Positions 1-64,000 of a stretch of DNA of 64,000 bases are shown here, in pieces. This DNA comes from Deltaproteobacteria bacterium (GTDB lineage: Bacteria > SAR324 > NAC60-12). Below the pieces are notes generated by a model. The model did not search any database and had not been told where the DNA came from. It saw only the letters and a list, made by a program, of their open reading frames with translations. Within the stretch, counting starts at the first letter, position 1, and each line of letters begins with the position of its first letter. Both the position numbers and the translations under genes were made by a program. Where the stretch lies: contig JAYOTF010000005.1 of the NCBI GenBank assembly GCA_038150265.1, positions 32,001 to 96,000 on the forward strand. The letters are read 5' to 3'.

Positions 1-412
1 TTCGCTGGTGCTCGTGTACCTCTCCGGTGTGATGATGCACATCTGGACGATCAAGGGCTACTTTGACCGCATCGACTCGTCGCTGGACAAGGCCGCTGCC
101 ATTGATGGCGCCACCCCGTGGCAGACGTTCCGGTACGTCTTTCTGCCGCTGGCAGTGCCCATCATGTCGGTGGTGTTTGTGCTGGTTTTCATCAGCGTGA
201 TCAACGACTACCCGCTGGCGTCCGTGCTGATTCGTTCGGAGGAGAACCTGACCCTGGCGGTGGGGTCGCGGCTGTACCTGAATGAGTTCAAGTACCTGTG
301 GGGGGATTTTGCGGCAGCAGCGATCCTGTCCGGACTGCCCATCACCGCTGTCTTCCTGATCGCCCAGCGCTACCTCGTCTCCGGACTTTCGGAAGGAGCG
401 GTGAAGGGCTGA
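1..412 (+). CDS. malG: Sugar (maltose/maltodextrin-type) ABC permease, MalG-like, 5'-truncated by window edge
   Basis: [21 protein letters not shown] is an EAA-loop variant; [14 protein letters not shown] and C-terminal GLSEGAVKG are typical of MalG/GanQ. Confidence 0.8.
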
Positions 413-424
413 GCCGGGGCTTGG

Positions 425-2233
425 TCAGACGAGGTGTTCCATGATGTACTGCTTGCGCTCTGCAGTGTTGCTGCCCATGTAGAAGCTCAGGAGGCTCCGG
501 ACTTCGCTGGTGTGCTCCAGTCCCACCGGCACGGCTCGCATGTCCTCGCCAATGAACTGCCCAAACTCCTTGGGCGAGATCTCTCCGAGCCCCTTGAAGC
601 GGGTCACCTCCAAAAACTTTCCACGCTTGAGCGCCTTCTGGGCCTGCTCCTTTTCCGTGTCACTGTAGCAGTACCGCGTTTCCTTCTGGTTCCGGACCCG
701 GAACAGCGGCGTCTCGAGGATGAAGACATGCCCACGCTGCACGAGCGATTCGAAGTAGGTCAGGAAGAAGGTCAGCAGCAGGTTCCGGATGTGCAGGCCA
801 TCGACGTCGGCATCAGTGGCCAGGATGATCTTGTTGTAACGGAGGCCTTCGAGGGACTCTTCAATGCCCAGGGCCTTGGTGATGTTGTAGAGCTCCTGAT
901 TCTTGTAAACGGCCTCCATGCCGTGTCCCCACGTGTTGAGGGGCTTGCCCTTGAGGCAGAAGATGGCCTGCGTTTCGACGTTGCGGCTGCTGATCATGCT
1001 CCCGCCTGCAGACTGGCCCTCGGTGATGAAGATCGTGCTCTCCTCGCCCCGTCCGGACTTGTGCCCCAGGTGGATCTTGCAGTCCTTGAGGTTGGGAATG
1101 GTCAGGGCGGTCTTGCGGGCGTTTTCGCGGGCCGCCTTCTTGACGTTGCTCAGCTCCTTGCGGATGCGTTCGTTGGACTGCACCTTGCGCTTCAGCTCCT
1201 CGGCAAGGTCCGGATGCTTGTAGAGGAAGTCGACAAAGGCATCCCGGACGGCTGGCATCAGCGTGGAGCGCAGGTCGGTGTTGCCCAGCTTGTTCTTGGT
1301 CTGTGACTCAAACATGGGCTCCCGGACCTTCACGGAGACGGCAGTGACCAGGCCATCTCGAACATCGGGGCCATCGAAGTTGGTCTTGAAGTACTGGTTC
1401 ACCGCCTTGAGGATGCCCTCACGGAAGGCGCTCAGGTGGGTGCCTCCGTCGCTGGTGTAGTGTCCGTTGACGTAGCTGTAGTTGCCTTCGCCGTAGCGGT
1501 CGGTGTGGGTGAGGGCAAACTCGAACCGCTCCCCTTCGCAGTGAATGATCTCGTAGAGCTGGCTCTCCTGCACCTCTTCCCGGAGGAGGTCCAGCAGGCC
1601 ATGGTCTGACTTGAACTTCTCCCCATTGAGGGAAAGCGTCAGGCCGCGGTTGAGGTAGGCGTAGTTCCAGAGCTGCTTCCGGACGGTGGCCAGGTCGTAG
1701 GCGTACTTGGGAAAGAGCTGAGGATCCGGGGTGAAGCGGACGAGGGTTCCGTCCTTTTCCGAGGTCTTGAAGAGTTGGGTTTCTTCGACCAACTCCCCCG
1801 CCTCAAAGCGGGCGGTCTTGCCCTTGCCGTCTCGGAAGGAGCTGATCTCAAAGGAGGCGGAGAGGGCATTGACGGCTTTGGTGCCCACCCCGTTGAGGCC
1901 CACGCTGAACTGAAAGACCTCGTCGTTGTACTTGGCGCCCGTGTTGATCACCGAGACGCAGTCCACGAGCTTGCCCTGGGGGACGCCCCGGCCGTAGTCT
2001 CGAACCCGGACCTCCTCTTCGGCAATGTCGATGACAATGCGCTTGCCGTGCCCCATGATGAACTCGTCAATCGAGTTGTCGACCACTTCCTTGAGGAGGA
2101 TGTAGATGCCGTCACTGGGGTGCGAGCCATTGCCGAGGCGGCCAATGTACATGCCGGGGCGCAGGCGGATGTGGTTCAGGGACGAGAGGGTGAGGATCTT
2201 GCTTTCGTCGTACGTCACTTTTGGGGTCGGCAT
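425..2233 (-). CDS. parE: Type IIA topoisomerase B subunit, most likely topoisomerase IV ParE
   Basis: HIRLRPGMYIG, EVVDNSIDE, GLNGVG ATP lid, TOPRIM EGQSA and TDADVDG, RFKGLGE; ~600 aa without the GyrB tail; start placed at ATG 2233. Confidence 0.85.
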   Translation of the reverse strand: MPTPKVTYDESKILTLSSLNHIRLRPGMYIGRLGNGSHPSDGIYILLKEVVDNSIDEFIMGHGKRIVIDIAEEEVRVRDYGRGVPQGKLVDCVSVINTGAKYNDEVFQFSVGLNGVGTKAVNALSASFEISSFRDGKGKTARFEAGELVEETQLFKTSEKDGTLVRFTPDPQLFPKYAYDLATVRKQLWNYAYLNRGLTLSLNGEKFKSDHGLLDLLREEVQESQLYEIIHCEGERFEFALTHTDRYGEGNYSYVNGHYTSDGGTHLSAFREGILKAVNQYFKTNFDGPDVRDGLVTAVSVKVREPMFESQTKNKLGNTDLRSTLMPAVRDAFVDFLYKHPDLAEELKRKVQSNERIRKELSNVKKAARENARKTALTIPNLKDCKIHLGHKSGRGEESTIFITEGQSAGGSMISSRNVETQAIFCLKGKPLNTWGHGMEAVYKNQELYNITKALGIEESLEGLRYNKIILATDADVDGLHIRNLLLTFFLTYFESLVQRGHVFILETPLFRVRNQKETRYCYSDTEKEQAQKALKRGKFLEVTRFKGLGEISPKEFGQFIGEDMRAVPVGLEHTSEVRSLLSFYMGSNTAERKQYIMEHLV

Positions 2234-2309
2234 CAGCTTCCGTGCGTTTGCGTCCAAGGGGGGAAATCAAATGAAGTGGCTAGAACTATAGTGAGAACCG
2301 GGCTGATTG

Positions 2310-2627
2310 TCAAAGGAGCGCCAGTTCCAGGTGGGGGTAGGGGAGCTCAAACGACTGCGCCTCGGGAGTGCCCGAGGCATGCAGGAGCTGGATGCCCAGA
2401 AACGAGGAGTGAAAGGTCAGGTAGGCCTGGGTGTGCCCTGATGCCAGCGGCGCCTCAAGGGTCAGTTCCGTTTCGGTGAGAATGGAGCCGCAGAGGTCCA
2501 GCTCGAGCACCTCCTCCAGGCGTCCCTGCAGGTCCGGGAGTTCCGGGTTCTCAGGGGCTGTGAGGCGGACCGGGTGCTGAGGATGCTGCCGGCACCACGC
2601 GATGGCGGTTTCCCGAGTCCAGTCCAT
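2310..2627 (-). CDS. Hypothetical protein (105 aa)
   Basis: ATG 1 nt after the obg stop, same strand as obg and parE; no recognisable motif. Confidence 0.6.
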   Translation of the reverse strand: MDWTRETAIAWCRQHPQHPVRLTAPENPELPDLQGRLEEVLELDLCGSILTETELTLEAPLASGHTQAYLTFHSSFLGIQLLHASGTPEAQSFELPYPHLELALL

Positions 2628-63094: not shown

Positions 63095-63214
63095 CCGAGT
63101 CTCCGTAAATCTTGGGGTCGCAAGGAGTGATGTGTTTGGAACGGATCGCTGGCAGAAATGTTATTCAAACGAAAAGAGTAACGTTCCGGTTAGGAAAGAG
63201 CAAGGCTCGGGCAA

Positions 63215-63529
63215 TCAAGGCACCTGCGGGGTGGCCAGAACCTCCACACAGGTTTGCCCTCCGGAGGAGCTGCGGCCAATTTCCTTGAAGCGGGGGAGGT
63301 ACCGCTCATTGCCGACGACACTCCGCAGGTGGAAGGCGGCCGTGTTTTCGGCCGCTCGCCGTGCTTCCTGAGGATCCAGCGCACAGGCGCGTCCCCGGAC
63401 GGTGGCATCAAGGCCTCCCTTGTCGGCAACTTCGTAGCGGGGGTCGAAGGTGCTGCGGAACAAATCACTGGAGTTGCTGCTGCAGGCTCCGAGCAAGCCG
63501 ACGCTGAGGAAGATCACAATCAATCGCAT
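63215..63529 (-). CDS. Small lipoprotein of unknown function
   Basis: Lipobox LLGAC after a hydrophobic signal; two further Cys. Confidence 0.65.
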   Translation of the reverse strand: MRLIVIFLSVGLLGACSSNSSDLFRSTFDPRYEVADKGGLDATVRGRACALDPQEARRAAENTAAFHLRSVVGNERYLPRFKEIGRSSSGGQTCVEVLATPQVP

Positions 63530-63645
63530 GGTTTTGCCATTCCGCCGAGGGTAAGTTAACGTAACACGTCTGGAGCATCCTGGCGGATGCCCCCTTCAGG
63601 ACTTCCACAAATGTTCAACAACCCTGCCACCACGAGAGACGTCGC

Positions 63646-64000
63646 ATGCAGATGAAGCACTCTTCTGAACTTTTCCTCCGCGCCCAGCAACGCATTCCCG
63701 GCGGAGTCAACAGCCCGGTCCGCGCCTTCCGAGCGGTCGGCGGGAAGCCTCTGTTCATTCAGCGGGCCTCGGGGTCCAAGCTGTTTGATGTGGACGGGAA
63801 CGAGTACATCGACTACATCGGTTCGTGGGGGCCCATGCTCCTGGGGCATTGCAACCCCGAGGTCACTCAGGCGGTGCAGGACGCGCTTCAGTTCGGAACC
63901 TCCTTTGGCGCGCCCACGCCCGGAGAGATCACCATTGCCGAGCAGATCTGTGACGCCGTTCCCAGCGTGGAAATGGTCCGGCTGGTGAACTCCGGAACCG
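63646..64000 (+). CDS. hemL: Glutamate-1-semialdehyde aminotransferase, 3'-truncated by window edge
   Basis: Manual translation [44 protein letters not shown]. Confidence 0.95.

Follow-up and report, generated by a model that had tools for sequence, protein, structure and literature searches.

The stretch analysed here (the window; 64,000 bp, positions 32001-96000 of contig C5) belongs to the SAR324 assembly GCA_038150265.1 and carries 159 copies of the palindromic hexamer TCCGGA, i.e. one per 402 bp, compared to 23.92 ± 4.78 copies (maximum 35) in 100 dinucleotide-preserving shuffles. In the source assembly as a whole (hereafter G000; 3,393,712 bp in 87 contigs, 61.2% GC, 97.8% complete) the word is the commonest hexamer, with 9,711 sites or one per 349 bp. 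Its copies follow a spacing rule on the scale of base pairs: they are scarce at 11-17 bp from each other and recur at larger distances with the helical repeat of DNA. On balance, we favor the reading that TCCGGA is the recognition word of a putative abundant, sequence-specific DNA-binding protein, most simply a homodimer.

Abundance, anatomy and turnover of TCCGGA

The original prediction, made from the letters of the window, described TCCGGA as a highly iterated palindrome (HIP) of the kind known from cyanobacteria. It counted at least 28 copies by eye in bases 1-10,000 and put the expectation from base composition at about 3 per 10 kb; exactly 28 sites start there, and a zero-order model gives approximately 3.3 per 10 kb. 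The different codon phases that had been noticed are also borne out, as the 159 sites dispersed over positions 1..64000 comprise 38 read as TCC GGA (phase 0), 44 as xTC CGG Axx (phase 1), 67 as xxT CCG GAx (phase 2) and 10 in intergenic DNA. Counted on both strands of G000, TCCGGA reaches 19,422, followed by the overlapping CCGGAG (10,913) and, as the next non-overlapping word, CAGCAG (9,274). Its observed/expected ratio is 8.69 at zero order and 7.57, 3.95, 2.39 and 1.22 for Markov orders 1 to 4, respectively. The low ratio at order 4 does not refute the enrichment, as it is TCCGGA itself that dominates the counts of the 5-mers TCCGG and CCGGA. The word leads all hexamers both by count and by ratio and is the outlier among palindromic hexamers that it had been taken for, the second-ranked palindrome being CTGCAG with a ratio of 3.16. 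Among the 16 words of the form NCCGGN it alone is strongly enriched; CCCGGA/TCCGGG reaches 2.26-fold, the others range from 0.67- to 1.62-fold, and CCGG as such lies at 1.37-fold.

The enrichment survives codon-preserving shuffles. Coding DNA of G000 contains 8,480 sites, compared to 2,032 ± 35 (maximum 2,107) in 30 within-gene synonymous-codon shuffles, which amounts to a 4.2-fold excess, and compared to 1,249 ± 33 after shuffling of codon order. As the latter value is lower than the former, permissive dipeptides are somewhat enriched in the protein sequences. All three phases contribute, with 1,983 sites observed and 511 left after synonymous shuffling for TCC GGA, 2,317 and 714 for xTC CGG Axx, and 4,180 and 807 for xxT CCG GAx. 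In the window, the 56 complete genes hold 146 sites, where 200 synonymous shuffles yield 41.5 ± 6.0 and at most 57. Intergenic DNA (482 kb in total) carries 1,182 sites, compared to 152 expected at zero order (7.8-fold) and 511 at order 3; there, too, the word ranks first among hexamers. Since all codon phases as well as intergenic DNA are enriched, the effect operates at the level of DNA and not of codons.

The word measures exactly 6 bp. The information content of the flanks does not exceed 0.08 bit at any position (T at position -1 and A at position +1 in 32% of the G000 sites), and the palindrome is extended by at least 3 bases on each side at 263 of the 9,711 sites. The extension to TTCCGGAA, which had been called frequent, is a weak tendency found at 16 of 159 sites in the window and 1,129 of 9,711 in the genome; intergenic hairpins, which had been noticed as well, are a minor component, as only 42 of 1,182 intergenic sites extend by at least 3 bases on each side. 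A dispersed repeat resembling repetitive extragenic palindromes (REP) or miniature inverted-repeat transposable elements (MITE) was considered and rejected, given that the flanks are without information, long extensions are rare and inspected pairs are unique. None of the one-mismatch neighbors of TCCGGA is conspicuously depleted in G000, and there is no sign of directed conversion. On a larger scale the sites are distributed close to a Poisson process: 297 bins of 10 kb contain 29.0 sites on average (variance 33.2, range 10-50), and the median spacing (238 bp) is that expected for an exponential distribution (237.6 bp). Apart from TCCGGA, the TA dinucleotide is strongly depleted in G000 (ratio 0.31), and palindromes containing CTAG or TA are almost absent (ACTAGT, CATATG and CCTAGG, each 0.03-fold of the zero-order expectation).

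We refer to a position as permitted if the protein allows the word by synonymous choice, that is at S-G, [FLIV]-R-[IMTNKSR] and x-P-[DE]. The word is present at 8,478 of 20,505 permitted positions (41.3%; 33.8%, 37.7% and 49.1% by phase), where the neutral level, obtained from the synonymous shuffles as 2,032/20,505, is about 0.099. The variance of usage between genes is 1.00 times the binomial value (772 genes with at least 10 permitted positions), and usage is correlated neither with the codon-usage score (rho 0.05) nor with GC content at third codon positions (rho -0.02). After Bonferroni correction 0 of 1,117 genes deviate, and this result, together with the exactly binomial variance, led us to reject the idea that low-usage genes are recent arrivals. 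The force is identical in every gene and therefore cannot be a composition or translation effect. Within genes, usage is lower in the first tenth (0.29 vs about 0.43) and slightly lower at the ends (0.39). GC-rich palindromes may be avoided close to start codons, which would account for the low value at gene starts, or else the start calls may contain errors. Relative to the synonymous-shuffle expectation the odds ratio is 6.4 by our own arithmetic, which corresponds to a scaled advantage of ln 6.4, or about 1.9, per site in mutation-selection or mutation-drive balance.

The behavior of single sites was followed in G002, a member of the same genus, of which 400 kb were aligned collinearly to 392,439 positions of G000 at 82-84% identity. 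Hereby 490 of 1,037 aligned G000 sites are conserved (43-53% by phase, 46% in intergenic DNA), compared to 35% for all hexamers, and 547 sites are found in G000 only and 338 in G002 only. Where the amino acid is conserved, the synonymous codon changes less often inside the word than outside in six of seven tests (fractions kept are given), namely for GGA (0.670 vs 0.485, p=7e-7), CCG (0.655 vs 0.543, p=9e-5), CGG (0.722 vs 0.544, p=1.4e-7), [CG]TC (0.800 vs 0.541, p=3e-10), four-fold degenerate NNT before CCGGA (0.677 vs 0.364, p=2e-20) and [TA]TC (0.904 vs 0.777, p=0.0012); for TCC the difference (0.663 vs 0.641) is not significant. With codon retention higher inside the word and yet only 490 of 1,037 sites shared, sites are thus individually preserved while the set as a whole turns over.

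Spacing of the copies in the source genome and its relatives

The histogram of all pair distances in G000 shows peaks at 9, 19-20, 30-31, 41-42, 51-52, 63, 72, 81-84 and 93 bp. Between 11 and 17 bp it has a hole, with 51 pairs observed genome-wide and about 195 expected. The spectral peak lies at 10.5-10.6 bp, with a variance-normalised power of 19.6 (12-200 bp) and a Poisson-normalised power of 55.6 (6-130 bp); at the best period of 10.6 bp the relative amplitude is 0.25 and the phase 5.50 rad. Five random 400-kb subsamples of the genome return periods of 10.5-10.8 bp. The amplitude amounts to 0.35 between 12 and 43 bp and to 0.21, 0.09 and 0.14 in the successive 32-bp windows, and thus decays over approximately 100 bp. 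The pairs that we inspected, 25 of the 218 spaced by 31, 41, 42, 51 or 52 bp, are unique sequences and do not form a repeat family.

Control words do not behave in this way: the power is 0.0 for CAGCAG/CTGCTG (n=9,274), 1.8 for CCCGGA/TCCGGG (n=8,006), 1.0 for GCTGGA/TCCAGC, 0.7 for CTGCAG and 4.3 for CTTCCG/CGGAAG, which overlaps the extended word. Forty synonymous shuffles, summed, give a power of 3.0 at an amplitude of 0.07. When only distances that are not a multiple of three are used, the power is 12.9, and intergenic DNA alone, with few pairs, returns the same best period at a power of 3.5. The A/T content around the G000 sites displays the 3-bp codon periodicity only, without a 10.5-bp oscillation, so that the phasing exists between copies of the word and is not a general wrapping code. 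A histone- or wrapping-type positioning code was accordingly rejected, there being no 10-bp alternation of A/T and G/C and no match to the histone fold (PF00808) in G000.

The usage of permitted positions in G000 can also be expressed as a function of the distance to another copy. Compared to 0.413 overall and 0.419 at 100-130 bp, usage drops to 0.129 at 11-17 bp (n=581), which is near the neutral level, and amounts to 0.38 at 9-10 bp and 0.35 at 19-21 bp. Further out it alternates between in-phase values of 0.47 (30-32 bp), 0.545 (41-42 bp) and 0.523 (51-53 bp) and out-of-phase values of 0.32 (24-27 bp), 0.32 (35-38 bp) and 0.31 (46-48 bp). Among nine classes of neighboring words, CCCGGA/TCCGGG alone co-phases with TCCGGA (power 9.9, phase 5.69 vs 5.66 rad, hole 0.62), which suggests a tolerance of the reader at the outer base; ACCGGA/TCCGGT displays the hole (0.63) and little periodicity.

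To place the trait in its phylum, we carried out a pattern scan of 88 genomes, using AGGCCT, a palindrome of the same composition, as control, and counted pairs by gap patterns in whole genomes (72-88 genomes covered); for G000 these gap-pattern counts (51, 149 and 87) are identical to independent tallies. The relatives are incomplete metagenome-assembled genomes, so that a gene or word not found in them is not necessarily absent, and being related they do not represent independent observations. In the genus of the source genome (g1), TCCGGA and AGGCCT are found 9,711 and 1,639 times in G000, 8,293 and 2,133 times in G001, and 7,726 and 1,548 times in G002. Strong enrichment is likewise seen in most of genus g11 (5,247/164 in G039, 5,316/226 in G040), in g19 (7,675/254 in G062) and in g4 (4,063/483 in G005). 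Genera g3, g6 and g10 are intermediate, part of family f7 is moderate (3-8), and g2 (nine genomes), g5, g8, g9 and family f2 lie near 1. Three poor genomes of g11, G036 (214/130), G044 (281/179) and G045 (185/118), are 51-57% complete. Relative to composition, the sampled sequences are enriched 7.7-fold in G062 (56.8% GC), 8.8-fold in G032 (43.2% GC) and 6.2-fold in G047 (41.5% GC), with TCCGGA as the top hexamer by ratio in both G062 and G032. Enrichment over a range of 41.5-61% GC shows that the trait is independent of base composition.

Enrichment and phasing recur together in four genera of 42-61% GC, and g1, g19 and most of g11 also display the 11-17 bp hole, with 27 pairs against an approximate expectation of 119 in G002, 50 against 121 in G062, 12 against 54 in G063 and 31 against 64 in G040; according to the gap-pattern counts it does not recur in f7. 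The genomes fall into two phase classes, which can be told from the numbers of pairs at 36-39 and at 40-43 bp. Class A comprises G000 (87/149), G002 (64/79), G032 (19/90), G037 (41/79), G039 (36/80), G040 (18/45), G046 (18/46), G047 (4/27) and G005 (14/37), and class B comprises G061 (69/9), G062 (89/14), G063 (29/0) and G001 (87/42). The class thus differs between congeners, G001 belonging to B and G000 and G002 to A. Full histograms yield the same period with the two classes half a turn apart in phase. For class A these give 10.55 bp in 400 kb of G002 (power 6.1, amplitude 0.33, phase 5.87 rad), 10.6 bp in 400 kb of G032 (power 18.2, amplitude 0.65, phase 5.84 rad) and 10.45 bp in 370 kb of G047 (power 18.1, phase 6.10 rad), and for class B 10.5 bp in 764 kb of G062 (power 16.0, amplitude 0.36, phase 3.54 rad) and 10.6 bp in 400 kb of G001 (power 6.8, amplitude 0.31, phase 3.81 rad). 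The spectral peak of G062 is broad (9.5-10.75 bp) and its period therefore less certain; a shorter period of 9.6 bp, initially read from 400 kb, was dropped, as the 764 kb are better described by about 10.5 bp and a half-turn shift. Non-overlapping control hexamers in G062 score at most 4, compared to 18.0 for TCCGGA. Flanking bases do not separate the two classes. In the AT-rich G032, A-tract words are periodic as well (AAAAAA with 11.8 at 12.0 bp, AAAAAC/GTTTTT with 7.8 at 10.55 bp, TTTTCC/GGAAAA with 9.1 at 9.6 bp), and TCCGGA is the strongest periodic word despite having fewer copies.

Of the aligned G001 sites, 236 of 670 are common with G000. The class-B signal of G001 resides in its specific and unaligned sites (amplitude 0.35, phase 3.83), with none in the shared sites (power 1.0), and the sites specific to G000 relative to G002 follow class A (phase 6.27); the powers for lineage-specific sites are approximate, as pairs between two anchors are counted twice. 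These data show that new sites obey the phase rule of their own lineage, and hence that the rule is active now and its geometry evolves.

An apparent 10- to 100-fold avoidance of TCCGGA in a sister clade, genera g38-g43 of f7 (31 copies in G083, control 1,584) was rejected as a specific effect, since CCGG is low there in general. In G084 (42% GC, CpG ratio 0.60), CCGG is found at 0.125-fold of the zero-order expectation, ACCGGT and TCCGGA are equally rare, and AGGCCT, the control, is itself 3.2-fold over-represented. Six of the seven CCGG-poor genomes concerned (G081-G087) encode full-length C5 methyltransferases, and the avoidance is consistent with restriction-modification of the CCGG type.

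Proposed protein occupancy and competing explanations

A protein bound to TCCGGA would occlude its immediate neighborhood, and bound neighbors could interact laterally in a manner that depends on their helical phase. Were the contact geometry to differ between lineages, two phase classes half a turn apart would result. Occupancy would further have to confer a small advantage on each site, either by selection (chromosome organisation, marking of own DNA) or by molecular drive (lower loss rate, biased repair), two forms that the data cannot separate. Action in intergenic DNA, the loss at 11-17 bp, the helical oscillation and its decay over about 100 bp are all expected if a protein occupies the word, and usage at the neutral level within the hole suggests that the advantage needs independent occupancy. 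Among the functional links proposed in the original prediction, the helical phasing and the exclusion zone thus favor the one to chromosome organisation or, more generally, to protein binding.

Several points weigh against this reading. We found no candidate reader protein, no gene that tracks the trait among the families searched, and no histone fold. It is difficult to see how selection could maintain approximately 10,000 sites whose individual effects are tiny, and the drive variant is therefore kept open. The near-neutral usage at 11-17 bp could have another cause, e.g. avoidance of short hairpins, although distances of 9-10 and 19-21 bp are not comparably depleted. No structural explanation has been worked out for why class A is constantly offset by about -1 bp or why congeners can differ by half a turn. 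Moreover, the genes were called by our own simple self-trained open reading frame (ORF) scorer (2,644 genes, 86% of G000 coding), G000 alone was analysed whole with the relatives sampled at 370-764 kb or pattern-counted only, and expected pair numbers are approximate, being derived from n²/L with rounded genome sizes. In a more far-reaching form, which we advance tentatively, the word would be part of a chromatin-like system: an abundant protein would sit on some 10,000 words, exclude neighbors within about 17 bp and contact partners up to about ten turns away, its geometry would have flipped between close species, and the abundance of the word would follow from occupancy through shielding or biased repair, methylation playing no part.

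A HIP maintained by methylation appears unlikely. In this scheme an orphan methyltransferase would mark TCCGGA and either a mismatch-repair ratchet or a modification-dependent function would keep the sites, with the methyltransferase encoded on contig C51 of G000 as writer or reader. Precedents come from the cyanobacteria: in the portions of Elhai 2015 (PMC4390886) available to us, HIP1 and the alternates GGCGCC, RCCGGY and GCSGC are each paired with a cognate methyltransferase, and a methylation-dependent mismatch-repair ratchet is proposed. Where intergenic sites of G000 and G002 differ by one base, it is mostly an outer base that has changed (21 of 36), as the same portions report for HIP1. 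Profile searches of G000, however, returned no match to PF00145 (C5), PF02384, PF07669 or Vsr (PF03852); the PF05063 search carries no weight, its control genomes having been silent. Full-length C5 enzymes are absent from g1, g11 (0/12, with fragments in 2) and g19 (0/3) and present in one of three g4 genomes. Neither are the deamination neighbors depleted, TCTGGA/TCCAGA being found at 2.57-fold and TTCGGA/TCCGAA at 1.34-fold of the zero-order expectation in G000.

Two PF01555-type methyltransferases do exist in G000, and both contain the SPPY motif, which is typical of N4-cytosine enzymes. The one on contig C45 has a 71%-identical ortholog in G001 only and is a mere fragment in the equally enriched G002. 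At C45:1438-4562 its gene (258 aa) follows that of a reverse transcriptase (PF00078, 469 aa) and precedes a 311-aa ORF without a Pfam family, an arrangement that looks like a defence or mobile module.

The second enzyme (C51:1-1387, cut by the contig end; 730 aa at full length in G002) is the candidate in such a scheme, and its type is found in every strongly enriched genus (g1 3/3, g19 3/3, g4 3/3, g6 2/2, g11 12/18). It is found in 32 of 44 genomes of family f1 and 18 of 19 of f2 and was not found in f3-f7 (0/24), and against a specific role it is also present in TCCGGA-neutral genomes, namely in seven of nine of g2 and in f2. Its N-terminal extension lengthens with TCCGGA density (Spearman 0.72 for 21 genomes, uncorrected for phylogeny; tails located with tblastn, G063 left out): 22-51 aa in neutral genera except for G014 (123 aa), 40-76 aa in g3, g6 and g9, 135-143 aa in g4, 126-186 aa in g11, 173 aa in G062 (g19) and 243-350 aa in g1. 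A single branch (81/82) of the enzyme tree has all 10 rich genomes on the same side, and this correlation therefore represents approximately one event. The tail consists of R/D/E/P repeats (EDRPRR...) in g1, where the G000 contig breaks inside the repeat, is rich in K/E/S in g11 and contains AKKA repeats in G014; rich genera share a basic P-x-RVR(R/K)K motif. The matches in six g11 genomes contain one in-frame stop (TGA in G033, G034, G041, G046 and G048, TAA in G039), which may simply be where a shorter protein ends normally. For the predicted fold (pLDDT 88.7), a structural search found no counterparts other than Dam, tRNA m2G and small-molecule methyltransferases, at TM 0.3-0.4, which does not settle the substrate; a search of the Atlas returned generic methyltransferases only, and NCBIfam and PDB sequence searches gave weak hits below the cut-offs.

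The comparison of syntenic loci is decisive for this candidate. In G012, G037 and G040 the C51-type gene lies between a gene for a DMT-type membrane protein and a convergent gene of 331 codons, whereas in G032, G047, G036 and G045 these flanking genes are 86-205 bp apart with nothing between them. G032, G047 and G036 form a clade (99/99), in which the poor G036 is the sister of the rich G047 (100/99), and the shared empty locus implies that the gene was lost once, before they diverged. Nevertheless, G032 and G047 are 8.8- and 6.2-fold enriched and strongly phased. No match to PF00145, PF01555 or PF02384 was obtained in G047 (82% complete), and G032 (87% complete) yielded two weak PF02384 matches only. 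An alignment of G032 and G047 over 41.5 kb (80.9% identity) contains 19 shared sites and 43 and 17 private ones, respectively. Pure decay would by our own arithmetic need about 62x36/19 = 117 ancestral sites, or 2.8/kb, which exceeds the density of any g11 genome and makes continued gain of sites after the loss of the gene the more plausible history in this two-genome comparison; the sites may conceivably also have decayed slowly after that loss, given the densities of 1.5 (G032), 0.98 (G047) and 0.16 (G036) per kb. As the tail correlation amounts to about one event and the gene is missing from the rich, phased G032 and G047, we rejected the C51 enzyme with its charged tail as the reader. Taken together with the lack of an intact C45 enzyme in G002, the link to methylation that the original prediction envisaged is not supported: a conventional DNA methyltransferase is unlikely to be required to maintain the system, and such an enzyme may have played a role in the origin of the trait.

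Somewhat less probable still is a watermark for DNA uptake, in which a competence machinery that prefers DNA with TCCGGA would spread the word by biased uptake and recombination. A drive of that nature is expected to favor every site equally, whatever the frame, and to be common to related genera; both are seen here, and ComEC is present in G000. A comparable role has been proposed for HIP1, which in the available part of Rodriguez-Cruz et al. 2026 (PMC13756078) correlates with pilus and competence proteins. On the other hand, ComEC (PF03772) is found in 67 of 72 genomes of at least 80% completeness, whether rich, neutral or poor, and thus does not discriminate between them. Nor does uptake predict an exclusion zone on the scale of base pairs, a 10.5-bp phase rule or two phase classes; the spacing on the kilobase scale is Poisson and not more even than random, and known uptake sequences are 9-12 bp long and asymmetric. 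A search for the pilus protein PilM (PF11104) gave uniform partial matches of about 30 bits in frames of about 420 aa in 71 of 72 genomes, which we read as probably FtsA-like.

DNA mechanics without any reader are very unlikely to suffice. The word would act as a flexible or kinkable step, copies in phase yielding curved and copies half a turn out of phase straight DNA, and this would readily picture the two opposite classes as well as a period equal to the helical repeat in five genomes of 42-61% GC. It leaves unexplained why exactly this hexamer, and among its neighbors only CCCGGA, is used, and why the hole at 11-17 bp is sharp with recovery at 9-10 bp, and no periodic A/T or G/C pattern accompanies the sites. 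Finally, a by-product of composition, codon usage, dipeptide content or a dispersed repeat, to which the low order-4 ratio and the lower count after codon-order shuffling might seem to point, was tested and can practically be dismissed in view of the excess over synonymous shuffling in all phases, the intergenic enrichment, the domination of the relevant 5-mers by the word, its uninformative flanks and unique pairs, and the 6.2- to 8.8-fold enrichment at 42-43% GC.

Sites of the window and relation to known palindromes

Several groups of closely spaced sites lie in the window. The triplet at 60339, 60390 and 60432 (60339..60437) has spacings of 51 and 42 bp, both in phase for class A (about 10.55k - 1), and a pair at 329..385 is likewise in phase at 51 bp. 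In the triplet at 52361, 52373 and 52415 (52361..52420), a spacing of 12 bp, a rare case inside the exclusion zone, is followed by an in-phase spacing of 42 bp. Two helical turns (21 bp) separate the sites at 14636..14662, and 8 bp those at 21992..22005, which read TCCGGANNTCCGGA. Further triplets are located at 7021, 7064 and 7118 (7021..7123; 43 and 54 bp) and at 44725, 44757 and 44782 (44725..44787; 32 and 25 bp). The genes of the window are housekeeping genes such as those for ParE/GyrB-like, Acs, PFOR and Lon proteins, among others. Two ORFs on the plus strand, 56911-59715 (934 codons) and 42826-44298 (490 codons), are without Pfam match at E<=1e-5. An ORF of 546 codons on the opposite strand (56833-58473) overlaps the first of them, and of this overlapping pair one is probably a shadow frame.

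In cyanobacteria, hyper-abundant palindromes have been on record for three decades, and no function has been agreed upon. Like HIP1 (GCGATCGC) and its alternates, TCCGGA is a short GC-rich palindrome and by far the most over-represented word, is dispersed in all coding frames and in non-coding DNA without being part of a longer repeat, and is kept above background at sites that nevertheless turn over; it belongs to a clade of which some members have lost it. With the alternate RCCGGY it has the CCGG core in common, itself belonging to the YCCGGR class. It differs from the cyanobacterial words in its phylum, in lacking a cognate C5 methyltransferase and persisting where the only conserved methyltransferase is gone, and in a periodicity on the scale of base pairs (10.5 bp, exclusion zone, two classes), that of HIP1 being on the scale of tens of kilobases. 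The idea of a lineage-specific HIP-like motif thus holds as far as outlier status under the Markov, codon and synonymous models, dispersal over all frames and intergenic DNA, retention of sites and sharing by a clade are concerned; no co-varying cognate methyltransferase was found, and the proposed tie to methylation is not supported. TCCGGA is a new, apparently methylation-independent variant of the cyanobacterial HIPs.

For HIP1 itself, the part of Xu et al. 2018 (PMC5861425) available to us reports selection and, with bins of at least 25 bp, a periodicity of tens of kilobases (39.4 kb in PCC 7002), and the word 'helical' is absent from that text. In the corresponding part of Rodriguez-Cruz et al. 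2026, methyltransferases are not significantly correlated with HIP1, and TCCGGA does not occur in the available text of Elhai 2015. The literature that we searched, taken without supplements, mentions neither an enrichment of TCCGGA nor a hyper-abundant palindrome phased on the scale of base pairs, and uses the term 'highly iterated palindrome' in cyanobacterial work only.

Three further systems invite comparison. The DNA uptake sequences of Neisseria (DUS) and the uptake signal sequences of Pasteurellaceae (USS) are long and asymmetric and are recognized by a specific receptor. TCCGGA resembles them in its thousands of copies brought about by a weak uniform bias across related genera; it differs in being a helically phased 6-bp palindrome that the competence gene tested does not track. 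In E. coli, very-short-patch repair by Dcm and Vsr shapes the frequencies of CCWGG and CTAG, which illustrates that a repair bias tied to a short palindrome can shift word frequencies genome-wide. That system, however, relies on Vsr together with a C5 methyltransferase and makes the deamination product rare; for TCCGGA neither the enzymes nor the depletion is seen. SeqA binds pairs of hemimethylated GATC sites on one face of the helix and is alike in one respect, as a dimeric reader of a short palindrome with partners at integral helical turns. GATC differs in not being hyper-abundant, and TCCGGA in having no shown dependence of the Dam type and in its half-turn class.

TCCGGA thus provides an independent case in another phylum, and its base-pair-scale rule of exclusion zone and helical phasing points to protein occupancy. 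It is reported in a 2024 preprint (10.1101/2024.09.10.611283) that HIP1 enhances transformation in a way that depends on methylation, and to our knowledge every discussion of the cyanobacterial palindromes ties them to methyltransferases. The contrasts within the subclade of G032, G047 and G036 suggest that methylation may not be an essential ingredient of such words. Congeners of opposite phase (G000 and G002 vs G001) and rich and poor sisters (G047 vs G036) represent natural experiments for finding the reader. In every gene, the per-site force, with its odds ratio of about 6.4, shapes synonymous codon choice and, to some extent, dipeptides, which is of relevance for codon-usage models, binning signatures and the detection of gene transfer in this group.

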